Virus record (IMG/VR): IMGVR_UViG_3300033180_000002 | Span: 1 to 57,126 of that record | DNA from: a virus | Reading direction: 5' to 3' (one strand) | Length of the DNA stretch: 57,126 nt | Part shown: one piece after another, positions 128-57,126 of the stretch | Layout of the letters: the number at the start of each line of letters is the position of its first letter | How positions within the stretch are numbered: the stretch's first letter is position 1 | Notes under the pieces: generated by a model | Told to the model about the DNA's origin: nothing | Seen by the model: the letters and a program-made list of their open reading frames with translations, nothing else | Databases searched by the model: none | Position numbers and translations under genes: made by a program

Positions 128-378
128 GTACCGGGGGAGACGGCGTGCAGGGTGCCTTTCCAGCCCTTGCAGGGGCCGGGGTGCAGCGGGTGACGGCAGG
201 CGGTCAGGGAGCACGGCTCGTGGGCGTCTTCGTCCTGGGCGATCCACGCCTGGACGCTGGCAACGATGTGCGACAGGTCGCCAAGGCTCGGGGCATGGGC
301 GCTGGCCAGCAGGGCAACCGAGGCGATGGCGCTGGCCAGGTCGGGGACGGGCTTAACCAGGCTCCCGAGCGTCGTCAT
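1..378 (-). CDS. 5' end (N-terminal 126 codons) of the giant repeat/Nudix/ADP-ribosyltransferase protein; continues at 52275..57077 across the window junction
   Basis: Hand translation of the minus strand from ATG 378..376 gives MTTLGSLVKPVPDLASAIASVALLASAHAPSLGDLSHIVASVQAWIAQDEDAHEPCSLTACRHPLHPGPCKGWKGTLHAVSPGTYKQIEEARVEKANARR then VKRIADLRSQ. GC3 is very high, there is no stop, and it is in frame with the GTG (78..76) that the ORF track uses as the start in the second repeat copy. Confidence 0.8.
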   Translation of the reverse strand, partial: MTTLGSLVKPVPDLASAIASVALLASAHAPSLGDLSHIVASVQAWIAQDEDAHEPCSLTACRHPLHPGPCKGWKGTLHAVSPGTYKQIEEARVEKANARRVKRIADLRSQGKPIPRRLLTEIKAKP

Positions 379-739: not shown

Positions 740-2176
740 TCATGCCCTGCCCGCCTGCTTCAGGGTCTTGTTCTGCTGGGCGGTGCGCTGCGCGGCAGCC
801 TTGGCCGCCCTCTGCTTGCGGTAGGCGGCGGCGTCCTTCTTCGACATCTTCGCCACTTTGGCCTGTTCGCGGCGGCGGGCAAGGATGGCGTCGGCGCGCT
901 TGCCGAGGGAGTCCTTCTTCCGCTGCTCCGCCTTGGCGTGCCGCTCGGCGCGGCGGTCCAGCACGTCCTGCTGCTTGACGTCCTGAACGCCGGTTGCCTT
1001 GGCTTTGGCGTTGGTCCCGGCGGCCTGCTTCAGGGTTTGCTGGTGTGGGGCGAGGGCCTTCTTGTACCCGGCGATGGCGCGGCGGGCCATGGCGGCAAGC
1101 TTCGGGTTGGTGGCGTTCTGCGCGGCGACGGCCTGGGCTTGGGCGATGGCCTGGGACAGGCCGTTGACGGCGGTCTGCGCCACCTGGACGGGGTTGGCCT
1201 TGGTGGCGTCCTGCTGGCCAGGTTCAGTGTCGCCGCGCTTCTGGCCTTTGCACAGGCCCGGCTTGTGGGTCTGCATGCAGAACTGGCCGTCGGTGCAGGC
1301 GGACTGCATGAGGCTCATCCCGGCGGCGCGCAGAGCCAGGATCCCCCGGTCTTTGTACTGGCGGTTGCCCATCTTGGTGGGCTCGTTTTTGATCTCCAGC
1401 AGCTCGACGCACCGGCAGTTGATCACCTCGTGCGGCGGCCCGTCCGGGTCGTGCGGGTGCATCATCTGGAAGCCGCCGACGACGAAGGGCTGCGCGAACG
1501 GGACGGTCTGGCCGTCGGCTTCGACATGGTCCGGCCGGGTGCGGGAGTCTTCGGTGGCGAGCCAGCGTTTCACCCACTCGGTGCCGGGATCGTTCTCGAC
1601 GATCATGGCGAAGGCGTCATGTAGCCCACCGTTGTAGGCGCCGACGACTTCGGTGCGGGCGACGGTGCGGGCGCGGTTCTTCCAGGTGGGGATGCTGGTG
1701 TCGCCGAACATCTGTTCGACTTGGGCAGTCACGTCGGGGATAGTTGCGCCGTTGACTGTTGCTGAGTCAATGATCTGCGAGACGAGGCCGTACACCTCGG
1801 TCGGGACGGCTGACAGCCGGTTCTCCCGCTGAGCAATCCAGTTCCGCACGAACGGCCGGGACTCGAATACCGTGCCGTCGGCAAACAGGTCCCGGTACGG
1901 GGCGGCCAGCACCTCGCGGGCCACCTGCGCGGTGTACTGCGCGGTCAGTGCCGTCCACTTCGGAGTCTGCGAGAAGACCGTCAGCGGATCGGGCACCAGG
2001 CCGAGCCGGGCTACACCTCCGGCGAACATGGCCGTCTTCACGGCGGCCATCCACTCCAGCATCATCTCCAGGTAAGCCTCATACAGGGACGGCTCGTACT
2101 GGGCGAACACCTCGGCGGCGGCCTGCTTCTGCGCGGTCGCGCTAGGCAGGGTTGTCGGCTGAGTCACGCTCGACAC
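740..2176 (-). CDS. MuF-like (SPP1 gp7 family) minor capsid / head morphogenesis protein
   Basis: Carries Mu F-domain style motifs TVARTEVVGAYNGG, WLATEDSRTRPDHVEADGQ and VINCRCV. It follows the portal gene after three small ORFs. The GTG at 2167, with GAGGAG 8 nt upstream, may be the real start. Confidence 0.8.
   Translation of the reverse strand: MSSVTQPTTLPSATAQKQAAAEVFAQYEPSLYEAYLEMMLEWMAAVKTAMFAGGVARLGLVPDPLTVFSQTPKWTALTAQYTAQVAREVLAAPYRDLFADGTVFESRPFVRNWIAQRENRLSAVPTEVYGLVSQIIDSATVNGATIPDVTAQVEQMFGDTSIPTWKNRARTVARTEVVGAYNGGLHDAFAMIVENDPGTEWVKRWLATEDSRTRPDHVEADGQTVPFAQPFVVGGFQMMHPHDPDGPPHEVINCRCVELLEIKNEPTKMGNRQYKDRGILALRAAGMSLMQSACTDGQFCMQTHKPGLCKGQKRGDTEPGQQDATKANPVQVAQTAVNGLSQAIAQAQAVAAQNATNPKLAAMARRAIAGYKKALAPHQQTLKQAAGTNAKAKATGVQDVKQQDVLDRRAERHAKAEQRKKDSLGKRADAILARRREQAKVAKMSKKDAAAYRKQRAAKAAAQRTAQQNKTLKQAGRA
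1385..1394 (-). repeat. AT-rich motif copy (GATCAAAAAC)
   Basis: Context GAGATCAAAAACGA; within MuF in sense, read E-I-K-N. Confidence 0.8.
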
Positions 2177-2857: not shown

Positions 2858-4822
2858 TCATGGCGCGAGGTCCCCTCGGGTGACGTGCAGGGTGGACTTC
2901 AGCAGCTCCGGGTCGTGCGCGACGCCCCGGGTCATCAGCTCTGTGCAGTAGCCGCCCAGCAGCTCCTCTAAGGCGTCGGCGTCCACACCCAGTGCGGGGG
3001 CCTGCTCGCGGACGTGCGACCACGCACCGGCCAGCAGGGCGGGCACGCGGGAGCGGTCTGGGATGACCTGGGTATGCAGCTCATGCTTCGGTACCGCATA
3101 CCGGGCACGGGCCGGACCGGCGACGAGGCGGCCACCGGCCAGCTCCAGGGCGCGGCGCACGGCGCTGTCGGCGGCGTAGAACAGGGCGGAGCCGTCCAGG
3201 GTGCCGATGGACGCGGCGAGCTGCCCCAGCTTCTGCTTCTTCGGTGCCCCGACGTTGCCCTGCTCGGCGTCGGCGACGGACGGGAACTGCGGCAGGCCGC
3301 GCTGCCCGGCGTCGGCCGGTTCCGTACCAGCCGAGTCGTATCCGGGGTCGCCGGGCATCAGGTCACCCTGGCCAGGGAGCTGCGGCGGCGTGGGCGGGGC
3401 GGGCATGGAGATGTGCGGCAGCCCGAGGATCTTCTGTACCTCGGGGTCGCCCGCGTAGGCGGGCTGGGCCAGTACGAGGGCCTTGACCAGGCTGTACCGC
3501 AGCTCCTTGTCGTCGGGGGCGTCGTCGTCGGTGAAGGCGGCGTTGTCGCGGGCTGCCTTCGCGCTGATCAGCTCCTTCTCGGCGAACTGGAGTGCCTGGT
3601 CGGAGCGGTTGGGGCGGACGGTGAGGGCGGCGATGTCGAACCAGAGGGTCTTCTTCTCCGGGTTCTGGACGCCTGCGGCTTTGAGGGCGGGCTGGAAGTA
3701 GCCGAGGTTGAGGGCGTCGGCGAGCTGGATGAGTAGCGGCTCGATGTGGATCTTGATCGAGGACTCTTCGATCTGCCACGACGACCAGTGATTGCTGCCG
3801 CCCATGCCGGTCAGCACCTCGGGCGGGATGTCCAGCGACATCGCCATGCGCTCGACGGCGTCCTTACGCATCTGGGAGATGTGCTCCGAGATGGTCGAAT
3901 CGAACGTCAAGTGTTTGATCTTGTCCAGGGCCTCAGTGGCTACCTGGAGGATGATCGGCACCACGGCGGCGGCGTTGTCTCGCTGCTGCATCGACGTGGC
4001 CATGGTCCGCTGCAACAGCTCCGCGAAGCCCTCCACGCCCGTGCGCTGCGGCACCCCCGGCGTCTCCTGTGGCGGGCGCGGAAAGTCGATGTTGTCGGGC
4101 AGCAGCAGGATCCCGGCACCGGCAAGGCGGGAATCCAGCTCGGCGAACACCCGCTTTGTGCACTGCTCCAGCTCGCGCAGCACCGGCAGGATGGCCCGCA
4201 CGGTGGAGTCGGCCGCGTCGTGGCGGCGGGGGTGCGGGTTCCACACCCGGATCAGCAGATCCTTCTGCGGGTCCAGCTTGTAATTGCCCCCGCCGTGGGT
4301 GATGGACCGGCGGACCATGATGTCGTCGCCGCGCCGGAACACCTCCGACGACGAGCAGACATACCACTTGTCCTGGTCCGGGGTGCCGTCCTGACCGGTG
4401 TTCCGATACCCCTCGGCGACGATGAAGACATCCCCGGCGGTCATCATGTTGATGCCCATCAGGCGCTGGGCCTGGGCTTTCGCGGCGGGAGTGCCGAACA
4501 TGGTCTCGGCGATCATCTTCGCCTGGGCGTCGGCGGTCTCGTCGCCCACAGTGCCGTCGTCGGCGATGTCGGCCGCGTACATGCGGCAGCGGGAGATGGC
4601 GTTACCGATCCAGTTGACGACGAAGCGCATCTCCCCGCAGATGTCGTAGTGGCGCCACGCCTCCCACTGCCAGCGGTGGTCGCCCAGCTTGAACATCTGC
4701 CAGCTCGCGGCATCGCCGAGGTTGATGGGTACGGCGGCGGCGGTGAGGGCTGAAGGCCGCGTGCCGGGGCCGTCCAGCCCCCCGGCGGGGACCAGCTTCG
4801 GCTTCTTGGTCAACAGCCCCAC
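2858..4822 (-). CDS. portal protein
   Basis: 654 aa. The N-terminal pattern WQWEAWRHYDICGEMRFVVNWIGNAISRCRMY is typical of actinophage portals. It lies between the terminase region and MuF. Confidence 0.85.
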   Translation of the reverse strand: MGLLTKKPKLVPAGGLDGPGTRPSALTAAAVPINLGDAASWQMFKLGDHRWQWEAWRHYDICGEMRFVVNWIGNAISRCRMYAADIADDGTVGDETADAQAKMIAETMFGTPAAKAQAQRLMGINMMTAGDVFIVAEGYRNTGQDGTPDQDKWYVCSSSEVFRRGDDIMVRRSITHGGGNYKLDPQKDLLIRVWNPHPRRHDAADSTVRAILPVLRELEQCTKRVFAELDSRLAGAGILLLPDNIDFPRPPQETPGVPQRTGVEGFAELLQRTMATSMQQRDNAAAVVPIILQVATEALDKIKHLTFDSTISEHISQMRKDAVERMAMSLDIPPEVLTGMGGSNHWSSWQIEESSIKIHIEPLLIQLADALNLGYFQPALKAAGVQNPEKKTLWFDIAALTVRPNRSDQALQFAEKELISAKAARDNAAFTDDDAPDDKELRYSLVKALVLAQPAYAGDPEVQKILGLPHISMPAPPTPPQLPGQGDLMPGDPGYDSAGTEPADAGQRGLPQFPSVADAEQGNVGAPKKQKLGQLAASIGTLDGSALFYAADSAVRRALELAGGRLVAGPARARYAVPKHELHTQVIPDRSRVPALLAGAWSHVREQAPALGVDADALEELLGGYCTELMTRGVAHDPELLKSTLHVTRGDLAP

Positions 4823-7841: not shown

Positions 7842-7843
7842 CG

Positions 7844-8861: not shown

Positions 8862-8954
8862 GTACTAGGCTTTCTTCCGCTTCGCGTGTCGACCCACTAG
8901 GCGGCGCCTGGCCTTTCCTTTTACCACCCCAGGTTGGCTATCTCCCGGGGGCCG

Positions 8955-21112: not shown

Positions 21113-21236
21113 CGCACAGACCCCCGACCTATCCAGGCCGGATGACCCGGGGGTTTCTCAGCCGACGCCGGTTCGGGTGCACACCGGCACGGGCGGCCTG
21201 GAAGGCGACATCCAGGCCGCCCGCCATCCCGAAGTC

Positions 21237-27293: not shown

Positions 27294-27890
27294 TCAGGTC
27301 ACCGGCCCCAGATACATGCCCCAGAAACGCGAGCCACTTTGGACCGCCTTCTGAGTGCTTCCGTTGAGCAGGAGCGTCGCATCGGCCGACCCCTGATAGA
27401 TGGGCGCCATGGCGAACAGATTGATCCACTCACCGTTGGTGTTGGTCTCGTCGTTCCGCTGGTAGAAGTTGGTCGTAGAAACGACCGTTGTCACCTGGTC
27501 GGTCGTGTTGACAGCAATCTTCCCCATGCACATATCGCCGACCACCGGCGTGCCCGAGACGATATTGACCAGGATCGTGGCACCGAACATCCACCACGAA
27601 GGCTGCTCACTGAACGGCTGATTCCACGTGGAGTCGCCGACCGTGAGCCCCCCCGTGTTGTCCCACTCGACGGCACCGACAACCAGATTCTGCGAGCCCG
27701 CGATGAACCCGCTTCCCGTGGCCGTCTGCCGTCCGATGAACGACGGGCGGCCCAGGAACGCCCGGAAGGGCGCCTGCTCGGCGCGCAAGTCAGCATCGAT
27801 CGCCATCGCCAGCCGGAAGGAGTCCTGCACGTCCGCGAAGTCGGTCGTGAAGGGATACGGGTAGCCCTCAGTGGGGGTGGTTCCGCTCAT
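27294..27890 (-). CDS. minor tail protein (198 aa)
   Basis: The ATG at 27890 overlaps the upstream stop as ATGA. Translation gives GYPYPFTTDFADVQDSFRLAMAIDADL. Confidence 0.55.
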   Translation of the reverse strand: MSGTTPTEGYPYPFTTDFADVQDSFRLAMAIDADLRAEQAPFRAFLGRPSFIGRQTATGSGFIAGSQNLVVGAVEWDNTGGLTVGDSTWNQPFSEQPSWWMFGATILVNIVSGTPVVGDMCMGKIAVNTTDQVTTVVSTTNFYQRNDETNTNGEWINLFAMAPIYQGSADATLLLNGSTQKAVQSGSRFWGMYLGPVT

Positions 27891-29116
27891 ATGAAGTAGT
27901 CCGAGACCTTGATGGCGGACAGGGCCATGTATTCGATGACGTATGTCGTCGCGAGGTTGTTCGGAAAGAACGACAGGCCGCATCGGATCGGCGCCGTCGG
28001 ATCAGAGGAGTAGGTCAGAGCGGACGCATGCCCGCACCCGCCGACGCCCTCATCGTTTGACTGCACCGCATTGGACCGCATGTCGAATGCGACCTTCCCA
28101 AAGGTCGGGCCTCCGAAGAAGAATACGGAGAAGTAGTTGCTCGCGGCCTCAACAAGCCTAATCTCGAAGGTCGTAAGCCAGATGCCGACCGGCAGATAAA
28201 GCGCCCTGTTGTCGTACCCGAGATTGGTATTCGAGCCGATGTTGAACTCGGTCGTATTGAACGTGAGGCCACTGAACGTAGACGTATCGATGGTGACATT
28301 GCTGTTGCTGATACGCACGCGCGGGAACAACCCGGCAAGCGAGGTCAGCGGGTCAATGGTCGCCACTGCCGTGTCGGCCGCGCTGGCAAGCGACTGGAGG
28401 GCCGCCTGCTTCGGATACGTCACGGCCGGGTCGAAGCACATCGGGTCCGAGGTGGCAGGCATCGGCAGGCTGTACGAGTTGACCAGGACACTGCGGTACT
28501 TGGTGGTGATCGTCCCCACCACTGTGGACTCATCGCGGCCCATGATTCCGACCGATGTGCCCGAGCTGTAATCGGTGAGCGCCGCGTCGGTGCTGGACGC
28601 CATCCAGCCGCCCGGCTGCGTCGTGCCGACCGCCCACAGCTTCATCAACATGACGTTCGTCTGGAGGGGTCGGCTCCAGCGGATCGAGTACCGCAGGTTG
28701 TAGAAGGTGTTCGCGACATATGTCAGCCCGGTCACCAGGGTTGTCGAGATGGTGGAGAGACCTCCGCCGATGCGCTTGGAGAAGCGCAGCGAGACGGCAC
28801 CACCGGCGGCGACCATCATGGTTGCGACGTAGTAGTTGGAGGTGCTGGACAGCTTCGCGATGAAACCGGCGGTGGCCAGGTTGGTAATCGGGATCGCGGA
28901 CAGGGCCACCTGCGCGGTGATGTCGACGTCCTGCGTCAGGAGGTCGACATAGCCGAGGTTGTCCCCGGCTGCGGAGATCGCGATGTTGGCCGTGTTCGGC
29001 GCCACGCTGAACTGGGTAGCGACACCAGCCAGCGTGTACACCTGCCCCGAGGTGGCCGAGCCGAGGCCATTGGAGACGGTTCGGCCGAAGGTGTCGCTAT
29101 ATCCAGTGGTGACCAT
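27887..29116 (-). CDS. minor tail protein (409 aa)
   Basis: It lies in the tail-tip gene block and has a Ser/Thr/Gly/Ala-rich, beta-type composition. Confidence 0.55.
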   Translation of the reverse strand: MVTTGYSDTFGRTVSNGLGSATSGQVYTLAGVATQFSVAPNTANIAISAAGDNLGYVDLLTQDVDITAQVALSAIPITNLATAGFIAKLSSTSNYYVATMMVAAGGAVSLRFSKRIGGGLSTISTTLVTGLTYVANTFYNLRYSIRWSRPLQTNVMLMKLWAVGTTQPGGWMASSTDAALTDYSSGTSVGIMGRDESTVVGTITTKYRSVLVNSYSLPMPATSDPMCFDPAVTYPKQAALQSLASAADTAVATIDPLTSLAGLFPRVRISNSNVTIDTSTFSGLTFNTTEFNIGSNTNLGYDNRALYLPVGIWLTTFEIRLVEAASNYFSVFFFGGPTFGKVAFDMRSNAVQSNDEGVGGCGHASALTYSSDPTAPIRCGLSFFPNNLATTYVIEYMALSAIKVSDYFI

Positions 29117-44217: not shown

Positions 44218-45897
44218 ATGGAGTCGAACGACGCCAACTTTCTGATCGGTACGCCCGGGGCTTACCAGGCCCGCCAGGAGCTGGAGAAGGCCATCAACCC
44301 ACGCGCGGGGGAGAAGGTCTGCATCGGGGTGCCGCACCTGAACGATGCCGGATGGAACTTCACCGAGTCGGTCCTGCGGATGGTCGCCTACGACAAGGCC
44401 CACGGTGATCACCTACTGCACAATTCGGGCCTCATGAACAATGGCGCCCTGGCCCCGGTGTGGGGCCGCTCGATGGAGCTCTCCCACGCGCGCAACACCG
44501 CGACTGCCGCATTCCTGGCCAGCGACTCAGACTGGCTGCTCTGGTGGGACACCGACATCGGAGCCGAGCCGGACGCCCTGGAGAGGCTGCTCGAAGTCGC
44601 CGACCCGGTGACCGCGCCCATCGTCGGCGGCCTGTGCTTCATCGAGGGCGACTTCGCCCACGACTTCCGGGGCGGCCTGCGCTCCAGCCTGGCCCCCACG
44701 CTGTACGACTGGGCGTGGATCGAACCGAAGTCGGGGATGCCCGGCACGTACAAGATGCTGGCCCGGCAGGAGTGGAACGGCGAGATGACCCGGGTCGGCG
44801 CGACCGGATGCGGCTTCCTGCTGGTGCACCGCTCAGTGTTCGAGAAGATCGCCGAATGGCTCCGGGACCACGGCGCCCCGCCGCACATCTGGTTTGAGCG
44901 CATCCCCGGAGCCGACGGAGAGCTGTGCGGGGAGGACATCTCGTTCTGCCTGCGGGCGCACCAGGTCGGGCTGCCCGTCATGGTGCACACCGGCGTCGTC
45001 ACCACGCACCAGAAGACCGTCTGGTACGGCAGTGAGGACTACCGGATGAAGCCGTTCACGCCGCCCGCCGCGAACATGCGACTGCTGCCGCCGGACCAGT
45101 GGCCAAAGCTGGAGATCAACCGGAACGCCGCCGAGCAGGCCGCGCGCACCTCGCCGATACGCAACAAGCAGGTCCCGGAGGCGACCGAAGAGGTCGCCAT
45201 CGTCGTGCCCGTGGCGCACCGGGACAACGCTTTCACGTTCATGGACTCGCTGATGGCCAGCCTGACCCCCGGGCAGCGCGAGCGGGTGTGGGTGCACGTG
45301 ATGACGGACACCAACGACGCGGCCACGAAGGCGAGCTGGGACGCTCAGGCGCTGCACTACGACAACGTCATAGTCGACCAGCACCGCTACCTGCGGGAGA
45401 TGGGCAGCTTCGCGGAGAAGGTCAACCGGGCCTTCGAGGTATCCGACGAGCCTTGGCTGTTCATCGTCGGGGACGACGTGCGGTTCCATCCGGGCTGGCT
45501 GGACCAGGCGATGGAGGTCAGCCACGGCCCCAACGTGCACGTGGTCGGAACCAACGATCTTGGCAACGCGGCGGTGATGGCTGGCGAGCACGCAACGCAC
45601 CTGTTCATCAGCCGCGCGTATGTCGAACACCTCGGGGCGAGCCTGGACGGGCCGGGCATCGTCTGCCACGAGGGCTACCGGCACTGGTACGTCGACAACG
45701 AGATCGTCGAGCTGGCGAAGAAGCGCAAGGTGTGGGCGCCGTGCCTGGCGTCGCACGTCGAACATCTGCACCCGCTGTTCCGCAAGGGTGCGATGGATGC
45801 GGTGTATGCGATCGGGCAGGCGGCGGCCGAGACGGACCGGGCGTTGTGGCAGCAGCGACACCGGACCATGATCGAAAACGAGGGCGTAGATGCATGA
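44218..45897 (+). CDS. two-domain GT-A fold glycosyltransferase (559 aa)
   Basis: The ATG at 44218 follows GGAGGAGGAGG. Domain 1 has LWWDTDIGAEPD, GCGFLLVHRSVFEKI and GEDISFCLRA. Domain 2 has VAIVVPVAHRD and FIVGDDVRFHPGW. The remaining upstream part of ORF 41998..45897 is antisense artefact. Confidence 0.7.
   Translation: MESNDANFLIGTPGAYQARQELEKAINPRAGEKVCIGVPHLNDAGWNFTESVLRMVAYDKAHGDHLLHNSGLMNNGALAPVWGRSMELSHARNTATAAFLASDSDWLLWWDTDIGAEPDALERLLEVADPVTAPIVGGLCFIEGDFAHDFRGGLRSSLAPTLYDWAWIEPKSGMPGTYKMLARQEWNGEMTRVGATGCGFLLVHRSVFEKIAEWLRDHGAPPHIWFERIPGADGELCGEDISFCLRAHQVGLPVMVHTGVVTTHQKTVWYGSEDYRMKPFTPPAANMRLLPPDQWPKLEINRNAAEQAARTSPIRNKQVPEATEEVAIVVPVAHRDNAFTFMDSLMASLTPGQRERVWVHVMTDTNDAATKASWDAQALHYDNVIVDQHRYLREMGSFAEKVNRAFEVSDEPWLFIVGDDVRFHPGWLDQAMEVSHGPNVHVVGTNDLGNAAVMAGEHATHLFISRAYVEHLGASLDGPGIVCHEGYRHWYVDNEIVELAKKRKVWAPCLASHVEHLHPLFRKGAMDAVYAIGQAAAETDRALWQQRHRTMIENEGVDA
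45870..45879 (+). repeat. AT-rich motif copy (GATCGAAAAC)
   Basis: Context CATGATCGAAAACGA; within the glycosyltransferase in sense, read M-I-E-N. Confidence 0.8.
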
Positions 45898-46447
45898 GCA
45901 GGCGTTGAGCTGGGTCGGCCAGTTCCGGACCACCGACGACCTGGCCGTCCTCGACATCGGCGGGCGCGACCTCAACGGCAACACGCGCGGCCTCTTCCCG
46001 AACGCCAACCCGTACCACGTGATCGACATCCGCCCCGGCAAGGGCGTCGACATCGTGGCAGACGCCGCCGACTGGCGGTCGGAACGCGCCTACGATCTGG
46101 TGGTCACCACCGAGACCTTCGAGCACGCCGAGAAGTGGCGGGAGATCATCCTGACCGCCTGGGAGTCACTACGGCCGGGCGGCTGGCTGATCTTCACCTG
46201 CGCCGGACCGGGGCGCCCGCCCCACTCCGGCGTCGAAGCGGTGTGGGGTCTGATCGGCGACGAGTGGTACGCCAACGTGTCGCCACAGGAGATCGCCGAC
46301 GAGCTGACAGACCAGGGCTGGACGGAGATCGAGGCGCACCAGCTCGGCCTGGACACGCGGGGCAAGGCCGTCAAGCCGCTGGCCCCGCGTGAGGTACTTC
46401 TCGGGGCCACGCTGTCCCGGACAGCGGCAGGCGACCCGAACGCCTGA
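45890..46447 (+). CDS. class I SAM-dependent methyltransferase
   Basis: Contains VLDIGGRDLNGN (motif I-like), VVTTETFEHAEKW and LRPGGWLIFTCAG. Confidence 0.6.
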   Translation: MHEQALSWVGQFRTTDDLAVLDIGGRDLNGNTRGLFPNANPYHVIDIRPGKGVDIVADAADWRSERAYDLVVTTETFEHAEKWREIILTAWESLRPGGWLIFTCAGPGRPPHSGVEAVWGLIGDEWYANVSPQEIADELTDQGWTEIEAHQLGLDTRGKAVKPLAPREVLLGATLSRTAAGDPNA

Positions 46448-47503: not shown

Positions 47504-47665
47504 ATGTCGACCGAAGAGCGCATCAAAGAGCTGCTGGAGCGGTACGCCTACATCGAGAACGGCGAGCAGATGCAGTGCATGAACATCAACGAGGTCGACG
47601 GCCTCATCGCGGAACTCGCCGAGCTGGTCAACGAGCCCAGCAGGGGGAAAAGGCGGCGGCCGTGA
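47504..47665 (+). CDS. hypothetical small protein (53 aa)
   Basis: Translation gives MSTEERIKELLERYAYIENGEQMQCMNINEVDGLIAELAELV.... It has a strong ribosome-binding site. Confidence 0.55.
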   Translation: MSTEERIKELLERYAYIENGEQMQCMNINEVDGLIAELAELVNEPSRGKRRRP

Positions 47666-48366
47666 GCATCCTGGCGGAACGCGCGCAGGCCCTGGAGCGG
47701 TTCCATGTCGCCCACGCCCACAAGGGCATCTTCCGGCAGGCGCTCCTGGAGATTCGGGCGGGAGAGAAGCGCAGCCACTGGATGTGGTTCGTCTTCCCGC
47801 AGATGATCACCAGCGAGAGCGCCAGCAGTATGAGCCGCCAGTACGCCATCGCGAACCGGGCCGAGGCCGCTGCATACCTCGCCGATCCGATCCTGCGGCT
47901 GCGGCTGTACAACTGCACGGTCGGAGTACTCCAGCACAACCGGCTGATGTTCCAGCACCCCGACAACCGCAAGCTGCGGTCCTCTATGACCCTGTTCGCG
48001 CAGGTCGCCGAGGACCCGGCGATGCTGAATGCGGTGCTGGGCAAGTTCTTCGACGGCCCTGACCAGCACACCCTGGACCTGCTACAAGCGCAGCAAGAGG
48101 GCACCGAGGACGCGTACTGGGAGAAGGTTCGCCAGGCGCGGCCGAAGCCGAAGCCGCACCTTGAGGCGCTTTTCCCGGAACCGGACCGGGAAACTCAGGA
48201 GGAATTCGATCCGTGGACTGAGGCGCGGGTGCGGGAGTTTGTCAGGAGATGCGGGCTCAGTGGGGCGGCCCTACGCCTGATGGTGGGCGCGTGGATGGCA
48301 GATCAGGATCGTTCGTACGACGCGGGCTGGAATGCCCACGCCGACGCGAACGCATACAACGGATAG
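47662..48366 (+). CDS. DUF1810-family protein fused to a C-terminal module shared with 46986..47222
   Basis: Contains EKRSHWMWFVFPQ, YAIANRAEAAAYLADPIL and DNRKLRSSMTLFAQ, which are DUF1810 hallmarks as I recall them. The GTG at 47662 overlaps the upstream stop. Confidence 0.6.
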   Translation: MSILAERAQALERFHVAHAHKGIFRQALLEIRAGEKRSHWMWFVFPQMITSESASSMSRQYAIANRAEAAAYLADPILRLRLYNCTVGVLQHNRLMFQHPDNRKLRSSMTLFAQVAEDPAMLNAVLGKFFDGPDQHTLDLLQAQQEGTEDAYWEKVRQARPKPKPHLEALFPEPDRETQEEFDPWTEARVREFVRRCGLSGAALRLMVGAWMADQDRSYDAGWNAHADANAYNG

Positions 48367-49638: not shown

Positions 49639-51681
49639 TCACTCCTGGACCAGGGCGACGAGAAGATCACCCATGGCGTCATCGTAATCGGCGCTGCGGT
49701 CCACCGTCGTGGCCGCAGCAACCAGCTCGCCCCATTCGGCCGCCCGCGCGTCCCGGGCCTTCGCCTCCTGCTGCTCGGCGAGCATCCCCCGGGCGATGGC
49801 CCGGCCGAGGGCGTCGGTGTCGAGCGGCGCCGCCCCGGCCATCACCGTCTCGTCCTCGTCACCGACGAGCGGCAGGGCCCCGGCGGCAACGAGGCTGATC
49901 ACCTGCTCCTCCTCGTCGAAGGGAGCGGAGCCGTCCAGCGCTGACGCCGTCATGGCGCGGGGGATCGGGAACCCCGGCGTGATGACGTGCAGGGCGGCCA
50001 TCATCTCCAGGTTTCCGCCGATGCGCCGCCAGTCGCCGGACAGCGGGGTGGCCCGCATGGTGCGCACCGCCGCATCGTCAGCCTCGGGGACGAGGGCACC
50101 GGCCACCCAGATGCCGAACTGGTCTTCGCCCGCGCGCACGAGGGCGCCCAGGCTGGTGGTGCTGTCGTAGTGCTCGGCCGCCGCCCGGTAGCCCAGGTTC
50201 GGCCCGGCATGGCCACCCTTGCCGTACGACAGGCGGCCCACGGGGATGCGGGCGCCGTCGGCAGTGGCCACCTCGCCGGTGTGGAAGTAGGCGTAGTCGG
50301 TGCGCGACTTCGGGGCAACCGTGCAGGAGTCGCCGATACCGACGTGGCAGGTGTCCCAGGCGGCAAGGTGGCCGTACACGCGGCCGTCGTCGGCGATGTG
50401 CAGCGGTGTCGGGCCGGACAGTTTCGGGTCGTCGAACCATTCCTTCGGCGGGGCGTCCGGGGCGGCCCCGGCCAGGAGTGCGGCCATCTTCGCTCCGGCC
50501 TTCCAGTTGTCGGGCAGGCTACCTTCGCAGCCCTTGCGTTTGGCGATGGCGGTCAGCCGGGCCTTGAACTTCGCGTAGGGAATCTGCGGCTTGGCGCGGC
50601 CGTAGGAGCTGACGGCGTCGGGGATGTCGGCGCAGGTGGCGATCGGGAACCGGCGGCCGTCCGGGTCGACGAAATCGGCGTCGTCGAGCTCGCTGCGGAC
50701 GCCCGCCTTGGTGACGTCCGGCGCGGCGTAGGTGCCGCCGCCCATGCCGCCGCCGCCCTGACCCTGCTCGCCGTCGCCACCGGGCGTCTCCGCCCCGCCG
50801 GACTTCTGCTTGGTCTGGGAGGGGAGGCGCCGCTTGGCGAACTCCTCATCGGACAGCTCGATGCCGGATCCCTCGTCGGCCATCTCCTGCGTGTCCTGGG
50901 AGCCGTCCACGTTGGGCTTCTTCTTGGTCTTGCGATTGGGAATGGGGCTGACTGCCTTGCCAGGGGCGACCGCGCCGTCCGACAGCACGTTCCCGGCCAT
51001 CTCGGCGTCGTTTTCGATCTTGGCGTCCCAGACCACATCAGCCCAGTCGAGCTCGACGAGGGCGCCAGCGACCATCGCGGACGAGGTCGTGCCGTCCACA
51101 TTCGGGTCGGACGAGTCGATCGGGATCAGCTTCGCGTGGCCGGACAGCTCGGCGAACGCGGGGATGTGCACGAGGGTGGCGGAGGCGACCCGGCCGGAAC
51201 GGACCATCTTCAGGTGCGGCCCGTCGTAGCCCTCAGCGGCCATGACGGGGCCGCCGCAGCCGCAGTCGCCACCGTGGGCCATCTTCGCGGCCTTCAGCTT
51301 GCCCGCCTGCGCCTTCTTCCAGACGGCGTACGCCTTCGGCTCGGGCACCCGCTCCATCTCGGCGGTGTCGAGGTCGACGGACGGACCGATCACCTTGTTC
51401 TGGGTGAACTTCATCGCGGCCGTGGCGGCGTTGCGCACATCCTCCGGCCACGACTCGTCGTCGTAGAACTCGCCCTTGGCCGGAAGCATCCCGGCCTTCT
51501 CCTTGCCGATGCTGGCGATGTGCCCGACGATCACGGCGTTGGCGTGCCCGCCGGAGTCGCTGGCCACGTACCGCAGGGGCAGCGGCAGGTCGCGGTGGGA
51601 CAGGGCGCCAGCGTCGAACTGGCGGCCGTCACCGGTCGGCTTACCGATGACGGCGATTGGCATCTGCCAGGCGGTTCCCAT
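49639..51681 (-). CDS. capsid maturation protease (680 aa)
   Basis: The N-terminus PIAVIGKPTGDGRQFDAGALSHRDLPLPLRYV and the later YGHLAAWDTCHVGIGDSC resemble actinophage prohead proteases. It sits upstream of the capsid region. Confidence 0.6.
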   Translation of the reverse strand: MGTAWQMPIAVIGKPTGDGRQFDAGALSHRDLPLPLRYVASDSGGHANAVIVGHIASIGKEKAGMLPAKGEFYDDESWPEDVRNAATAAMKFTQNKVIGPSVDLDTAEMERVPEPKAYAVWKKAQAGKLKAAKMAHGGDCGCGGPVMAAEGYDGPHLKMVRSGRVASATLVHIPAFAELSGHAKLIPIDSSDPNVDGTTSSAMVAGALVELDWADVVWDAKIENDAEMAGNVLSDGAVAPGKAVSPIPNRKTKKKPNVDGSQDTQEMADEGSGIELSDEEFAKRRLPSQTKQKSGGAETPGGDGEQGQGGGGMGGGTYAAPDVTKAGVRSELDDADFVDPDGRRFPIATCADIPDAVSSYGRAKPQIPYAKFKARLTAIAKRKGCEGSLPDNWKAGAKMAALLAGAAPDAPPKEWFDDPKLSGPTPLHIADDGRVYGHLAAWDTCHVGIGDSCTVAPKSRTDYAYFHTGEVATADGARIPVGRLSYGKGGHAGPNLGYRAAAEHYDSTTSLGALVRAGEDQFGIWVAGALVPEADDAAVRTMRATPLSGDWRRIGGNLEMMAALHVITPGFPIPRAMTASALDGSAPFDEEEQVISLVAAGALPLVGDEDETVMAGAAPLDTDALGRAIARGMLAEQQEAKARDARAAEWGELVAAATTVDRSADYDDAMGDLLVALVQE
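51010..51019 (-). repeat. AT-rich motif copy (GATCGAAAAC)
   Basis: Context CAAGATCGAAAACGA; within the protease in sense, read K-I-E-N. Confidence 0.8.
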
Positions 51682-52041: not shown

Positions 52042-52278
52042 TCAAATGCCCTGCTGGTCGGGCAGGTCGGCTGGATCATCCCAGGACTGACGGGGACGCT
52101 GCTCGATCTGTGTGACGAGGTGCTGCACGCCGAGCGGCAGCTTCTCCCACGTGGCCGCATCCTGGCCGCCCGCAGCGGTCCACGCCGCGATGATCTGCGC
52201 GCGCTCGTCAGGGTGCACGTCGGTGCTCCCCAGGGCCTCGCCGAGACGGAGGAACAGCTTGCCTACGGAACTACTCAT
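52042..52278 (-). CDS. hypothetical protein (78 aa)
   Basis: ORF track entry. It has an ATGA overlap with the giant gene's stop. Confidence 0.55.
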   Translation of the reverse strand: MSSSVGKLFLRLGEALGSTDVHPDERAQIIAAWTAAGGQDAATWEKLPLGVQHLVTQIEQRPRQSWDDPADLPDQQGI

Positions 52279-55200
52279 CCCGGCTCCTTCTGGAGAATCA
52301 ACACAGAACGGTTCAGCCAGTTGAAGGCGGGCTTGCCGGGCTGGGCAACGTGGCGGGCGCCGCCGCCAGGGGACATGTGGTGCGTTTCGATCTCGATACC
52401 GTCGATACCCTTCGCTGCGGCGTAGCGGCCCGGGTCGTAGAAAGTGGAGTCCTCGTAGCCGCCACCCTTGGCTTTCGACGCGCGAGGGTTGGCGTGCGAC
52501 TTCTTCGCCACCTTGTCGTACTTCTCGGTGACCGCACTCTTCGGGATGAGCAGGCGCACGATGGATCCCTTGGTGCTGTCCGCGTACTGGGTGGCCACCG
52601 ACTTTTGCGTTGCCAGGTAGTAGCCGTTCCCGAAGATGCCCTTGCCGTAGTAGGCGGGGCCGGAGCGCATCTCCTCGTTGATCTCCTCGGCGGTCTTGCC
52701 GTTCGACCGACCGCTACGCCAGTTGCGTCCACCGGCGCCGGACGTGCCGCGCCACGCCTCGATGTAGTCGCCAGTCGCGAGCAGCCGGTCGATCTCCTTC
52801 TTGTCGAGCACGGTCGGGGTGTCGTCGAAGCCCTGCTGGGCGCCGATCGCGGCCAACCGGCCGTCGGCGGTCTTGCCGTCGTACAGCTTGCGGTCGTTCT
52901 TGATCGTCTGCCGCTGGGCGTCGAACGTGGCCTTGTCGGGGATCAGATCCTTCCCCTTCGACTGCTTGTGGGCGTGCGGCCAGGCGTTGAACGTGGCGGG
53001 TGCCTGACGGCCGCCGGACGGCATGCGGAGCCGCCCCAGCCGCTTGGTGACCGGGCCGGGCCGGGCGATCTGGCCCAGCGTCGTGCCCGTGGCGCCCTGC
53101 GGGAACAGGGAGATGACGTTCGTTTCCAGCTTGCCGCCCGCGATGGGGTGATGCAGCTTGCCGCTGGCGTCGAGAGCCTTGATCTCGGCCTCGGTCATCC
53201 ACTTCGCGTCGGAGGTCTCCGCGCGGGCGTGGGCCGTCGACAGGTCCGGCTTGATCATCGTCGGGACCGAGGCGGCCACCGTCGTGTACTTCCACGGGTG
53301 GCCCGGGACCGAGAACGTGTGGTCGCCGTGCACGAGGGCGTCCTTGAACACGTCGTCCTTGAGGCCCAGCTCCTCGATCGTCTCGCGGGTGGCGCCCTGG
53401 TGCGGGGTTTCCTTCGAGTCGCTGGCGCCGCCGGGGAACGTCCACTTGCCGGGGTCGCTGATGGCGGGGCCGCGCTGGACCATCAGGTAGCGCTTCTCGC
53501 CGGTCTGCGGGTCGGTGTGCTGGAGGAGCAGCCCGGCCGCGCCGTGCGCCCCCCAGACCCGGCCGCCGCCGGGGAGGCTGATCCACCTGTCGCCGGACTG
53601 GCCGCTGTCCTTGGCCTTCTCTAGGCCCTTGAGCGGGGTGGCGTAGCGGACCTGGCCGGGGACCGCATTGGCCGGGGGGATGATCGCGCCGGTCGGGACC
53701 TGGCCGGACGGGGTACCGGCCGGGGTGAACCGGTCGATCAGCTTGCGGGCCTTGTCGGCGGAAGGCCCCTTCGCCGTGGTCGCGATGAACGACAGGTCGC
53801 CGAGGAGGTGGCCCTGCTCCTGGCCGTTGAGCGCGCTGAAGTCGGAGCCGCGCAGCGCACCGTACGTGGAGAGCTGGTGGGCCATGGTGTGCGACTTGCC
53901 GGACGCGTGGACGCCGTAGATGGTGTCCAGGGCGGCCTGCACGTGCGGCGGCACGTTCGCCTGCACGGTCGTCGGCGTGAACCCGGACGGGCTGGCAGCC
54001 GGGGCCGCCGGGTGGAACTTCGCGTTCAGGGCCTGCTGAGATGCGCCGGGGAGCGCTTTGATCCGCTCGTCGATGGCGTCGCGGTACGTCTTGTCCAGGG
54101 AGTCGAAGTCGGCCTTGGGGAGGTCGGTGAGTGTCATCTCCACGGCGAAGTCGCTGAAGGCGCCGCCCGGAGCGGACTGGGAGATGGCGTCGATCTGGTC
54201 GATGTTGAGCTGAGCTGCGGCGTCGCCGAGGTTGAAGTCTTTTGTCCGTAGCGCGTTGTATCGGATCGGGAGGGGAAGGCTCCCGTCGTGTGCGATCTTG
54301 TCCAGGTCGGCGTGAATCAGATCTTGGTCGCCCTGGCTCATGGTGCGGAATTTCGAGATCGGTACGTCGGCGTACACCCGGGTACGGTCGAACGGATTGA
54401 TGATCTTCGTTCCGAAGTTGGCGATGTCCGAAGCGGCCCGCACATCGCGGTCAGCGTAGGAGGTCCGCATCCCCTGGAGGTGGTCAACCAGGGTGGAGGG
54501 CATCACCTTGAACGGGTTGTCCTGCGGCGACCAGGTGAGGACGGGCCCGCCACGCTCGGCGCGGACCTGCGCCTCCTCCAGATGGGAGGTGATGGCGGCC
54601 TGGGTGAACGAGGGTAGCGACTGGTAGTCAGCCGGATCCAGCCTGCGGTAGGTGTCGACAAGCCCCGTGGAAATGAACGGCTTGGCGGCGGCCTGGGCAG
54701 CATCGAGCTGGGCCCCGGTGAACGGGTGCCCCTGCAACTGCCGCAGGGCGATCTGCGTGCCGGTCTTCGCGTGATTGTTGCCCTGCGACAGGATCCGGTC
54801 GGCGAGCGCCCTGCGGACGTTCATCTTCGCGGCGTCGGACAGCGCGTTGAACTCGTCGAGGCGTTCCTGCGGCACTTCGACGTCGCTGCTGGAGATGTGC
54901 AGGAGGTTGTCCACCACGTGGTTGCGGGTGGCCAGCGACCAGGGGCTGCCGGTGGGCACGCCCGGGTCGCCGCGTAGCCCCGTTTCGATGAGGTGCAGGC
55001 GCAGCGCTTTGACGGCTTCGGCGTGGATCGGGTGGGAGGAGGTCAGGTCGGCTTCGGAGGCCCGGAAGATGGCCGTGATGTCGGATGAGGTGAGCCGGGG
55101 GGCGGGCTCGTAGTTGTGCTTGTTTTGCGCCATCTGGATCGAGTTGTACTGCGGGCCGCCGTACGGGCTTTCGATCATGGAGGCGCGCAGCCAGAGCGGC

Positions 55201-57077
55201 AGCGTCGGGTTGTCCTCGGCGACCCGACGCGCTTCCTTCGCCAGGACGGCGCCGGGGGACGTGGGGTCGCCGTACTTCGTCGGGGCCTGGACCCGGGCGT
55301 GCAGGAATTCCGACCACAGCGCGTCGGCATCGACCTTGCCCGCACGGAAGTCCGCCTCGGCCTGCCGCATCCGGTGGACGCCTGGGTGCAGGCCGGTGTA
55401 CTTCGTGATGGCCGCTTCGGCGTCCTTGTCGGCGGGCGCACTGCTGTGCAGCTCCTGTAGCGCGTCGGTGATCTTGCGCTGTTCCTCCGGCTTGGCGGCG
55501 TCAAACTGCGGCTTCGACAGGGCGGAGAGCGCCTTGACTCGGTCGGCGCGCGGAATGGTGAGGAGGTTCGCCGACCGGATGGCGTCGGACAGCGCCGCCG
55601 CGTCCTTGGCGCCCCTGGTCTGCGCCTCGGCGTGCAGCTCGTTCAGCGACGGCTCGTGGTCGCGCTTGGTGCTGTCGGGCTGCGGCCCGGCGTCGATCAT
55701 CTTCTTCAGAGCGGCGGCGCGGAAGGCGGTGTGCGGGGTGGACGACTTGTGGTTCGCGATGAAGTCGAGCCGGGCGGTGATGGTCCGGCGGTCGGCTGCG
55801 TCGAGCCTGCCGATCGAAGTATGGCTGAGCTGCCCGACCCGTTTGATCACATCATCCGAGGGGGCGGCGCTGGCTGCCGCCTTGACGGCTTCGTTCATCG
55901 GGTCGCTGTAGCCCTTGGCGGTGGGAGATGCCGGGCTGACCGGGGCCGGGTGTCTTGATCCAAAACGATCGAGGAGATCCGTCGCGGCCTGCCGCTTCTT
56001 CGGGTCGAGGAACTTCGCCTTGGCGTTGGCGAGGTCGTCGCGGATCGCCTTCTGCTCGGCCGGGGCGAGGCTGTCGAACTCGGCCTTGGACAGCTTGCCG
56101 TACGCGTCGAGGTGGGTCTTGGCCATCTGCGCCTTGGGGGCGCTGCGGTTGGCTACGGCGTTGGCGTGCTGGACGTGCGCGGCGGTGCCCGGCGCGAGGG
56201 GAGCGGACGGGGTGGGGCCGGACGGGGCGCCAGGGGCGGCCGGTGGTGGCGGCGCCGTCGGGGGCAGAGCGTTGCCGCCGTGGGTGTTGGCATGGTCGTG
56301 GGCGTACTTCTCCAGGGCGGCCTGCGTCGAGCTGGTGCGGATCAGCTTCCCGTTGTGCTTGAGGCTGTAGCCCGCGCTGTCGCGGGTGATCCGGTAGCCG
56401 CTGGGCAGGCCCACCGAGGTCGAGGAGACGGAGCCGCCAGGGAGTGGCTTGTTCAGGATGCCGTTTTGATCGCGGGTGCCCCTGCTGGGCGAGGGGGCCG
56501 GAGCGGGCAGTTGCGGCGTCTTGGCGGCCTGGCCGAGGCTGACCTTGCCCGGCGTCGGGACGGGGTGGGAGCCGGGCGCCTTACCGCCGGGCGCGGCGGA
56601 AACGCTCGGGGCGGGCAGCTTGGCCAGCAGGGCTTCGGCCTTGGTCTGCTGCGGGCCGAAGCCGCGCGCCTTGATGGCGGTCAGCTCGTTGCGGATGGTC
56701 GTCTTGTCGGCGTCGGGTAGGCCAGCCCACTCCTGCGGGGTGATCTTGTCGGCCTTGTCCAGCTTGTAGGTGTCGGTGACCTTCGGCTGGGTGATGACGA
56801 ACGCGGGGCCGCGACCGGCGACGGTCGGCTTCTTCTGCTTCGGCCCGAGCGGTAGCGGCGGGGGCGTCTTGACCTGGACGCCTGCCGCCTTGGTGACGGC
56901 CTGCCCGGCGGTGTGTGCCTGCCCTCCGGCGAGGTCAGCCTTCTGGTTGACCTGCCCGAGCGGTACGGCCTGCGCGTTGTGGGCCGGGTGGGTGGGGGCG
57001 GGCTTCGCCTTGATCTCCGTCAGCAGGCGGCGGGGGATGGGTTTGCCCTGGGAGCGCAAGTCGGCGATGCGCTTCAC
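52275..57077 (-). CDS. giant protein, main body (1,600 of about 1,700 aa): degenerate helical repeats + Nudix hydrolase domain + C-terminal ADP-ribosyltransferase domain
   Basis: The Nudix box is GGASDSKETPHQGATRETIEELGL (about 53361-53432). The ART-like R/S-T/ExE elements are YIEAWRGTS, GYYLATQKS and GIDGIEIE (about 52275-52890). The true start is the ATG at 378 in the first repeat copy. Confidence 0.8.
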   Translation of the reverse strand: MKRIADLRSQGKPIPRRLLTEIKAKPAPTHPAHNAQAVPLGQVNQKADLAGGQAHTAGQAVTKAAGVQVKTPPPLPLGPKQKKPTVAGRGPAFVITQPKVTDTYKLDKADKITPQEWAGLPDADKTTIRNELTAIKARGFGPQQTKAEALLAKLPAPSVSAAPGGKAPGSHPVPTPGKVSLGQAAKTPQLPAPAPSPSRGTRDQNGILNKPLPGGSVSSTSVGLPSGYRITRDSAGYSLKHNGKLIRTSSTQAALEKYAHDHANTHGGNALPPTAPPPPAAPGAPSGPTPSAPLAPGTAAHVQHANAVANRSAPKAQMAKTHLDAYGKLSKAEFDSLAPAEQKAIRDDLANAKAKFLDPKKRQAATDLLDRFGSRHPAPVSPASPTAKGYSDPMNEAVKAAASAAPSDDVIKRVGQLSHTSIGRLDAADRRTITARLDFIANHKSSTPHTAFRAAALKKMIDAGPQPDSTKRDHEPSLNELHAEAQTRGAKDAAALSDAIRSANLLTIPRADRVKALSALSKPQFDAAKPEEQRKITDALQELHSSAPADKDAEAAITKYTGLHPGVHRMRQAEADFRAGKVDADALWSEFLHARVQAPTKYGDPTSPGAVLAKEARRVAEDNPTLPLWLRASMIESPYGGPQYNSIQMAQNKHNYEPAPRLTSSDITAIFRASEADLTSSHPIHAEAVKALRLHLIETGLRGDPGVPTGSPWSLATRNHVVDNLLHISSSDVEVPQERLDEFNALSDAAKMNVRRALADRILSQGNNHAKTGTQIALRQLQGHPFTGAQLDAAQAAAKPFISTGLVDTYRRLDPADYQSLPSFTQAAITSHLEEAQVRAERGGPVLTWSPQDNPFKVMPSTLVDHLQGMRTSYADRDVRAASDIANFGTKIINPFDRTRVYADVPISKFRTMSQGDQDLIHADLDKIAHDGSLPLPIRYNALRTKDFNLGDAAAQLNIDQIDAISQSAPGGAFSDFAVEMTLTDLPKADFDSLDKTYRDAIDERIKALPGASQQALNAKFHPAAPAASPSGFTPTTVQANVPPHVQAALDTIYGVHASGKSHTMAHQLSTYGALRGSDFSALNGQEQGHLLGDLSFIATTAKGPSADKARKLIDRFTPAGTPSGQVPTGAIIPPANAVPGQVRYATPLKGLEKAKDSGQSGDRWISLPGGGRVWGAHGAAGLLLQHTDPQTGEKRYLMVQRGPAISDPGKWTFPGGASDSKETPHQGATRETIEELGLKDDVFKDALVHGDHTFSVPGHPWKYTTVAASVPTMIKPDLSTAHARAETSDAKWMTEAEIKALDASGKLHHPIAGGKLETNVISLFPQGATGTTLGQIARPGPVTKRLGRLRMPSGGRQAPATFNAWPHAHKQSKGKDLIPDKATFDAQRQTIKNDRKLYDGKTADGRLAAIGAQQGFDDTPTVLDKKEIDRLLATGDYIEAWRGTSGAGGRNWRSGRSNGKTAEEINEEMRSGPAYYGKGIFGNGYYLATQKSVATQYADSTKGSIVRLLIPKSAVTEKYDKVAKKSHANPRASKAKGGGYEDSTFYDPGRYAAAKGIDGIEIETHHMSPGGGARHVAQPGKPAFNWLNRSVLILQKEPG

Positions 57078-57126
57078 GCGCCGGGCGTTGGCCTTCTCGA
57101 CCCGGGCCTCTTCGATCTGCTTGTAC
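57000..57126. repeat. Exact terminal direct repeat, copy 2
   Basis: Identical to 1..127. The offset of 56,999 is derived from the ORF-track end 57077 versus the GTG at 78..76. Confidence 0.9.

Follow-up and report, generated by a model that had tools for sequence, protein, structure and literature searches.

Polyvalent proteins are large multidomain proteins of phages and conjugative elements that in phages are encoded among the late head genes and carry several effector domains, and the ART-PolyVal domain described in them (PF18760), an ADP-ribosyltransferase (ART) with a histidine in strand 1, a tyrosine in strand 2 and an aspartate in strand 5, belongs to the Tox-ART-HYD2 clade near the PARPs (PMC5512222). 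We describe here a giant gene of this general kind in a 57,126-nucleotide stretch of viral DNA (IMG/VR record IMGVR_UViG_3300033180_000002, positions 1 to 57,126; this whole stretch is referred to below as the window). The gene is encoded with head genes, a position that fits delivery with the DNA, and its product has the two or more effector-type domains by which polyvalent proteins are recognized, a Nudix hydrolase and an ART within a single 1,700-residue phage protein. We consider the giant protein most likely to be a virion-delivered weapon against host NAD/ADP-ribose chemistry, and we put a probability of roughly 0.6 on the more explicit proposal that it is a head-packaged, ejected polyvalent effector whose ART would modify a host macromolecule with NAD+ and whose Nudix domain would handle ADP-ribose-type dinucleotides.

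Several described systems resemble parts of this arrangement. With ART-PolyVal the giant protein shares a PARP-like GxGxY strand and an aspartate at strand 5, and its ART family likewise occurs in multi-copy arrays with GNAT and VIP2-type ART domains and in proteins with MuF and Zeta toxin, although an arginine replaces the histidine in strand 1 and no scanned family member attains the PF18760 gathering score. Predicted late expression, head packaging, injection and ADP-ribosylation of the host are shared with T4 Alt and with MuF-fused ARTs of the Alt/VIP2 type (PMC5512222, PMC9503650). Sister phages carry a VIP2/Alt-type ART (PF03496) at the same locus, whereas the ART of the giant protein is not of the R-S-E type, and packaging is demonstrated for Alt but only predicted here. 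MuF polymorphic toxins of temperate phages, reportedly described by Jamet et al. in 2017 as a MuF N-terminal domain followed by a variable C-terminal toxin, have in common with this locus a conserved N-terminal module, a swappable C-terminal cargo and a position near the portal gene; however, MuF is here a separate 478-residue gene product, and the giant protein's N-terminal module bears no relation to it.

On the Nudix side, the closest solved relative, its N-terminal extension included, is RenU of the PknG-L13-RenU redox system (PMC4401782), a free-standing 17-kDa cellular housekeeping enzyme, whereas the phage domain is embedded beside an ART and its substrate is a prediction. Packaging and early action on NAD+ or ADP-ribose derivatives are likewise predicted for Nudix domains that phages fuse to MuF, portal or head protease proteins, but these belong to T4 NudE-like or NadM-like clades (PMC9503650), whereas the one described here is RenU-like and ART-fused. 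According to the same 2022 survey, the Nudix domains of viruses are 'typically standalone', and ART-ARG pairs are also mentioned there (PMC9503650), while Nudix appears once in the polyvalent protein survey, in connection with InPase only (PMC5512222). The Nudix-ART tandem was not found in the text of either survey, and a Nudix partner, an eight-copy repeat and an N-terminal His/Cys module were not found among the domains described in PMC5512222. An initial annotation, made from the DNA letters alone, had presented the fusion of an ART to a Nudix domain on a giant repeat scaffold as not described before. This was an overstatement, in that polyvalent head-packaged ARTs and head-protein-fused Nudix domains are on record, although the tandem itself was found in neither survey. 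Because the principle of the polyvalent head-packaged ART is already established, the finding extends a known theme; the genuinely new details are the R-Y-D ART family, its RenU-like Nudix partner, the repeat scaffold, and the alternation at the locus of Nudix with an ADP-ribosylglycohydrolase (ARH).

The giant gene and its two enzyme-like domains

The only long open reading frame in 52275-57126 lies on the minus strand; it ends with a stop codon at 52275 and runs on, open, to the final base of the window. Nucleotides 1-127 of the window are identical to 57000-57126, which shows the assembly (source contig with k = 141) to be circularly closed at 56,999 bp. The window is thus a permuted copy of this circle, and features at its ends wrap round. 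The complete gene is 5,103 nucleotides long, starting with an ATG at 378, running down to 128 and continuing from 57126 to 52275. Its 5' end (codons 1-84, 128..378, minus strand), joined to 57126 through the circular junction, is placed by homologues that align from residue 1, and its main body (codons 85-1700 with the stop codon at 52275-52277; 52275..57126, minus strand) by the open frame, the contig gene call and homologues. On the corresponding ENA contig (ERZ27251849 k141_1519444, 57,140 nucleotides) the gene is called with 1,700 residues. The 'roughly 1,700 aa' of the initial annotation was accurate, but its extent of 52275-57126 is corrected here to a minus-strand gene whose 5' end wraps to 378..128. 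Every motif that it quoted is present in the product, namely EAWRG (residues 1540-1544), YYLATQKS (1586-1593), GIEIE (1660-1664), the Nudix box and seven repeat examples.

A search of about 5.8 billion proteins yielded 136 relatives of the giant protein. About 58 of these are full-length and co-linear with it (34-76% identity), mostly on contigs of ~57 kb, and are annotated with PF00293 only. About 60 others match only residues 1-290 and 400-475, and in these PF03496 (ADP-ribosyltransferase exoenzyme) takes the place of PF00293. Along the protein, conservation peaks at residues 51-250 and 1100-1700 and is lowest in Pro/Ala-rich linkers. Among 50,697 GenBank phages, nucleotide and tblastn searches found no relative of the gene apart from a Nudix-only match in two records, and the ART domain by itself had no match at E <= 0.01.

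The Nudix domain (residues 1263-1401; 53175..53591, minus strand) scores 46.8 bits against Pfam PF00293, for which the cut-off is 21.1 (E = 3.7e-12), and matches phrog_1198 with E = 4.2e-15. Its Nudix box (residues 1317-1339; 53361-53429, minus strand) is complete with respect to GX5EX7REUXEEXGU, and G1317, E1323, R1331, E1332, E1335, E1336 and G1338 are each invariant in all 59 full-length homologues, in agreement with the complete Nudix box upstream of the ART that had been noted initially. Among solved structures the closest is that of M. smegmatis RenU (6uuf; E = 5.5e-17 and 37.6% identity over 139 residues), all remaining Nudix enzymes in the PDB having E >= 1e-5, and the likeness reaches beyond the box into the N-terminal extension 'GD.W....G.R.WG.HGAAGLLL'. 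RenU hydrolyses ADP-ribose as well as FAD and NADH; NAD+ is not among its substrates (PMC4401782). Judged by its intact box the domain is very probably active, and by inference from RenU it is predicted to be a pyrophosphatase of the ADP-ribose/NADH type that would spare NAD+, the substrate of the ART. PADLOC gives only a generic Nudix match (PDC-S07).

For the C-terminal domain (residues 1488-1700; 52278..52916, minus strand) sequence and structure evidence converge, and give moderate support to an ART fold. AlphaFold2, supplied with an alignment of 33 homologues (A1), modeled the domain with a predicted local distance difference test (pLDDT) score of 88.5 and a predicted template modeling (pTM) score of 0.85. 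In a Foldseek search of the PDB every one of the best 35 matches is the catalytic domain of PARP1 or PARP2 (probability up to 0.94, E about 5e-3). In BFVD ten uncharacterised phage proteins match the model (E = 2e-12 to 1e-5), followed by entries named 'PolyVal ADP-ribosyltransferase' and 'capsid maturation protease and MuF-like fusion protein' and by PARP entries. Gordonia phage GodonK and Bacillus phage SP-15 are among the phages represented in these structural matches. Single-sequence Pfam searches gave PARP (E = 0.0035-0.009) and ART-PolyVal (E = 0.012-0.029), both below threshold. The fold predictions of the initial annotation were thereby supported for Nudix by Pfam, and for the ART, at moderate strength, by AlphaFold2 and Foldseek but not at the Pfam thresholds. 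The sole match of a PDB search with the single-sequence C terminus, pyruvate carboxylase, is spurious.

The residues conserved in close and distant members alike place an R-Y-D triad in this fold. They comprise Q-G-F at 1515-1517, R1543-G in strand 1, G1578-x-G and G1583-N-G-x-Y1587 in strand 2, Y1598, R1608, D1648-x-G-R, G1657-x-D1659 at the start of strand 5, and L-N1689-R1690. R1543, Y1587 and D1659 are each invariant in the 59-sequence close family, and in the AlphaFold2 model Y1587 is on strand 98-102 and D1659 at the start of strand 173-176; among 46 wider members the strand-1 position is arginine in 45 and histidine in one. The ART had been proposed initially as an R/S-T/ExE type, of which the fold survives but the type does not. 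E1662 is glutamate in 46 of the 59 close homologues and in only 4 of the 46 wider members, and E1664 is variable (N, E, Q or D), so that 'GIEIE' is not a conserved ExE motif. There is also no S-T-S motif in the domain; 'YYLATQKS' belongs to a PARP-like GxGxY strand, and the strand-2 site holds an invariant G-N-G-Y-Y-L-A. By eye we liken this to the PARP1 strand, which we take to be G-K-G-I-Y-F-A, and W-R-G to W-H-G. PF03496 has no match in the giant protein. Two of the three active-site positions of ART-PolyVal (Y and D) are matched and R replaces H, and the domain is best described as an R-Y-D ART because it shares the tyrosine and aspartate with ART-PolyVal and has arginine in the place of histidine. 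We regard it as a sister or subfamily of ART-PolyVal on the PARP-like H-Y-[ED] side, rather than as an ART of the Alt or cholera-toxin type. Kinship with the PF03496 ART of the sister phages was considered and set aside, as hhalign profile-profile comparison of the two finds nothing.

Two interchangeable cargo sets at one locus

The N-terminal module is common to relatives with different cargo. Apart from the codons at the 5' end, it occupies residues 85-256 (56610..57126, minus strand), including repeat copy 1, as delimited by a BLASTP coverage map and by an alignment that includes both cargo types (A3), in which mean column identity is 71%. Near its start is the His/Cys motif H53..C56..C61..H66-P-G-P-C70 (169..222, minus strand), of the form H-x2-C-x4-C-x4-H-P-G-P-C-K-G-W-K (residues 53-70), which occurs once in the genome and is invariant across both cargo types. 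It resembles a small metal-binding knuckle and may be a head-incorporation signal. The hydrophobic N terminus could be taken for the Sec signal peptide of a secreted polymorphic toxin, a reading that we rejected as unsupported; residues 1-50 are poorly conserved.

A search with this module retrieved 80 viral loci from IMG/VR, with MuF just upstream in every one; over all related loci compared, 82 in number, the position of MuF is the same. Relatives that have only residues 1-290 and 400-475 in common with the giant protein end in PF03496, a VIP2-type ART, so that the locus has two interchangeable cargo sets, of which the Nudix and R-Y-D ART pair is one. The sets also differ in what accompanies them. 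None of the 17 complete loci with Nudix and R-Y-D ART contains an ARH gene, whereas PF03496-type loci have an ARH gene (PF03747) at a distance of 1-2 kb downstream, encoded on the same strand except in three distant loci where it is on the other. ARH is present in at least 15 other distinct contigs, that is, in nine of the ten with a recognised VIP2 ART and in six whose cargo tblastn did not recognise, and one PF03496-type locus is too short to judge. The pattern of Nudix versus ARH extends from the close clade to distant loci, with L060, L063, L069 and L071 on one side and L067 on the other. The locus can be viewed as a natural experiment in which a Nudix domain fused to an R-Y-D ART is set against a VIP2-type ART with a separate ARH. 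It suggests that phages deploy their ADP-ribose writers in company with an enzyme that processes ADP-ribose, an idea that bears on how injected ARTs are controlled or completed.

With regard to the ARH genes themselves, that of sister phage L002 (14085-15251, 388 residues, PF03747) is situated among the head genes, a few small open reading frames past the giant gene, and ARH is also found within L026-L052.

In the scheme that we favor, the giant protein would be made with the head proteins, as the gene order of portal, MuF, giant gene and head genes suggests, and would enter the capsid by means of its N-terminal module and long repeat scaffold, to be ejected into the host with the DNA. The R-Y-D ART would then ADP-ribosylate a host macromolecule using NAD+, a chemistry proposed from the modeled fold. 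The Nudix domain, with its intact box, would cleave the pyrophosphate of ADP-ribose, NADH and FAD while sparing NAD+, the result being either that free ADP-ribose or ADP-ribose-derived host defence signals are removed, or that products of the ART are processed. Comparison of the loci shows that in both cargo versions the predicted ADP-ribose writer travels with a predicted ADP-ribose-processing enzyme. Such a scheme bears on phage counter-measures to NAD+/ADP-ribose-based immunity in Actinomycetota.

The alternation of Nudix with ARH would also fit a safeguard. Here the Nudix domain, or ARH in the sister phages, would neutralise products of the ART or limit its action in the producing cell late in infection, rather than form part of an injected weapon. 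The same-strand position of ARH 1-2 kb downstream in VIP2-type loci, and never in Nudix-type ones, agrees with this, as does the description of phage ART-ARG pairs that resemble toxin-antitoxin systems (PMC9503650). However, a Nudix enzyme is unable to strip ADP-ribose fully from its target, and a fused antidote would be delivered as well and would blunt the toxin in the next host, and we therefore regard a safeguard role as quite unlikely.

Several observations weigh against the proposal of an ejected effector and need to be set beside it. We infer packaging and ejection from gene position, and although the location in the head module after MuF fits the virion-delivered effector suggested by the initial annotation, the packaging itself is a prediction; the giant protein contains neither a MuF nor a portal domain (no PF04233 match). 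The ART domain falls under every Pfam gathering threshold (16.8 of 31.2 bits for ART-PolyVal and 17.3 of 26.7 for PARP), the A1 profile has no match among PDB sequences, and the Foldseek TM score to the PARPs is low, at about 0.35. With arginine for histidine and aspartate for glutamate in the active site, activity as a protein ART, a nucleic-acid ART, an NADase or a phosphotransferase-like enzyme are all possible. The substrates predicted for the Nudix domain are read from its 37.6% identity to RenU. Finally, the mutual exclusivity of Nudix and ARH partly follows phage phylogeny, and the loci are not independent events.

The wider ART family and recurrence of the Nudix-ART pairing

A hidden Markov model (HMM) built from the 33 homologues of A1 and searched against 1.84 billion representative proteins (clusters at 50% identity) matched 1,663 of them with E <= 1e-3, including 777 with E <= 1e-10. 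On the R-Y-D family members scanned, none of the Pfam models attains its gathering threshold. Sub-threshold matches among 46 members are to ART-PolyVal (PF18760) in seven, PARP in four and DUF3990 in two, the best PF18760 match, still below threshold, having E = 5e-4. This is a large ART family that no Pfam model fits, an arginine variant of the PolyVal/HYD2 type that is overwhelmingly tied to phage head proteins. In 51 distant members of 450-1,320 residues the partners are Nudix (10), MuF (5), portal (3), minor capsid protein 2 (2) and 2H (2, sub-threshold), Nudix being the commonest fusion partner. One member with three copies of the R-Y-D ART also bears MuF and Zeta toxin domains; such combinations are hallmarks of polyvalent proteins (PMC5512222).

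Three further members (P0130, P0131 and P0139) have 6-10 tandem R-Y-D ART copies per protein together with GNAT or a VIP2-type ART (PF03496). A 12-copy ART protein was described by Iyer et al. 2017 (PMC5512222).

The ten Nudix-bearing distant members form a second clade with the same Nudix-then-ART order and another Nudix subtype, with the box GGGVEPGLTDQQNALKEVWEETG, which is deviant at two positions (E to L and R to K). In the ART domain these members share 29-36% identity with the giant protein, and in both clades the Nudix domain is 90-170 residues upstream of the ART. The existence of this second clade indicates that the pairing is recurrent and not a one-off. These Nudix domains were missed by a clade-specific Nudix HMM, by jackhmmer and by simple regular expressions; phmmer with an approximate E. 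coli MutT query sequence found ten members, the same count as Pfam.

Recurrence of the pair with a consistent spacing raises the question of whether the two domains act in succession. Some Nudix enzymes, for example NUDT16, turn protein-linked ADP-ribose into protein-phosphoribose, and the fused Nudix domain could analogously release AMP from an ADP-ribose added by the ART, leaving a phosphoribosyl mark that would be immune to the macrodomain and ARH erasers of the host. The same logic applies to the Legionella SidE protein, with its mono-ART and phosphodiesterase, but the domains here are unrelated and delivery by the capsid is proposed. The constant placement of Nudix 90-170 residues upstream in two clades and its rank as top fusion partner (10/51) are both in line with a two-step writer, and ARH, which reverses ADP-ribosylation, is absent from Nudix-type loci and present beside VIP2-type cargo. 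If such a writer exists, it would explain why Nudix-type phages can dispense with an ARH gene. A RenU-type preference for ADP-ribose over NAD+ (PMC4401782) would also suit action after the transfer. We nonetheless consider successive action a tentative suggestion and on balance unlikely, as RenU-like enzymes are not known to act on ADP-ribose linked to protein or nucleic acid, the Nudix box of the second clade is deviant, and tethered enzymes need not act sequentially.

Two distant members, one of them P0166 (residues 21-143), have a sub-threshold 2H match (2'-5' RNA ligase / cyclic phosphodiesterase) N-terminal to the ART, a hint that part of the family may target RNA ends or an ADP-ribose cyclic phosphate. 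PARP-like and Tpt1-like ARTs can ADP-ribosylate the ends of nucleic acids. An RNA-directed module is accordingly conceivable, in which Nudix would remove NAD or NDP-X caps or a 5' pyrophosphate and the ART would modify RNA or DNA ends, and the Nudix domain does have faint RppH-type matches in NCBIfam (E = 0.02-0.08). However, its sequence is far more similar to RenU (E = 5.5e-17) than to RppH, the 2H matches fall short of the Pfam threshold, and no RNA-binding domain was found in the protein; we view this possibility as improbable.

The repeat scaffold and the surrounding genome

From the N-terminal module up to the Nudix domain the giant protein contains a recurring helical module. Leave-one-out HMMs built from the seven 26-residue examples in the initial annotation were too weak, with two of the seven clearly recovered, and profile-profile comparison across the family was therefore needed. 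For this, a sub-profile was cut from the 59-sequence alignment for each quoted module and compared with the whole-protein profile. The seven sub-profiles match one another in register (P = 1e-9 to 1e-5 for the best pairs, with a few weaker, to about 0.1), and an extra copy appears at about residues 511-542, with weak copies at about 841-860 and 767-792. With a repeat HMM (consensus AYGKLTKADFDALPPADQRAIDDDLAAIAADA) the giant protein has eight recognizable copies and shuffled controls have none; PF03496-type relatives have one to five copies, with a mean of 2.3. The repeats reported at the outset are real, although 'about ten' is a slight overcount of what we resolve as eight solid copies plus one or two weak ones; the unit has roughly 30 residues and three helices.

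All eight copies are encoded on the minus strand and are supported by both the sub-profiles and the repeat HMM. Copy 1 is at residues 209-239 (56661..56753) and copy 2, the best conserved and found also in VIP2-type relatives, at 425-455 (56013..56105). Copy 3 (524-542; 55752..55808), which was not on the initial list, is partial and scores 14.1 bits in the repeat HMM. The remaining copies are copy 4 at 616-647 (55437..55532), copy 5 at 909-940 (54558..54653), copy 6 at 1001-1032 (54282..54377), copy 7 at 1082-1111 (54045..54134) and copy 8 at 1171-1202 (53772..53867). Copies 5 to 8 are further supported by an AlphaFold2 model of residues 898-1225 (pLDDT 87.9), which is all-helical and shows in each module a short helix, a short helix bearing an aromatic residue and then a long helix, a three-helix unit of the short-short-long kind that is clear in copy 5. 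The units are spaced about 65-100 residues apart. Foldseek returned nothing significant for the scaffold, only generic armadillo, PUF and HEAT solenoids (E > 0.04, TM about 0.2), and we treat it as an undescribed helical repeat that, as modeled, is assigned to no known repeat family.

Since helical scaffold without an enzymatic signature makes up about 1,200 of the 1,700 residues, and the gene lies within the structural block, the protein could have a mostly structural role in the head or in ejection, its enzyme-like domains being non-catalytic relics. We think this very improbable. The Nudix and ART regions are in the best-conserved stretches of the protein, with the metal-binding residues and R1543, Y1587 and D1659 invariant in 59 sequences, and the gene is missing from cultured relatives that have the same head-gene order.

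The gene order on the minus strand is portal, three small open reading frames, MuF, two tiny ones, the giant gene, three tiny ones and a 680-residue head-module protein, followed farther downstream by the major capsid protein (phrog_777), the tape measure protein (phrog_305) and tail proteins. The portal gene is at 2858..4822 (phrog_776, E = 4.6e-159), and the MuF-like head morphogenesis gene (740..2176, 478 residues; PF04233, phrog_2468) is directly upstream of the giant gene, which the initial annotation had correctly placed after MuF. The 680-residue protein (49639..51681; phrog_859, phrog_18402), downstream, is kept in all related loci according to a tblastn table. Relatives of the capsid protein all come from actinobacteriophages, with at most 40% identity, and G+C content is 63-70%, mostly 67-70%, which together indicate an uncultured siphovirus-like actinophage. 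In Actinoplanes phage phiAsp2 and Microbacterium phage Margaery, cultured relatives with the same head-gene order, no giant gene follows MuF, and the gene is therefore an accessory insertion and not a core structural part.

Some minor features of the genome may also be recorded. Within the head block, between the 680-residue protein and the major capsid protein, genes on the plus strand (44218-46447 and 47662-48366) encode a glycosyltransferase-like protein (559 residues, with a faint GT2 match), a methyltransferase (185 residues, PF13489) and a DUF1810 protein, and the glycosyltransferase and methyltransferase pair is also kept in sister phage L002. ARAGORN calls five tRNA-like genes, at 7057-9026 (minus strand) and 21021-21113 (plus strand), which are probably the 'tRNA-like RNAs' of the initial annotation; two are reported as 'tRNA-???' with abnormal anticodon loops (4-nucleotide and 2-nucleotide anticodons), and two are unusually long, at 90 and 93 nucleotides. 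In the tail region a 409-residue protein (27887-29116, minus strand) has a weak PHROG 'phosphodiesterase' match (phrog_24476, E = 6e-8).

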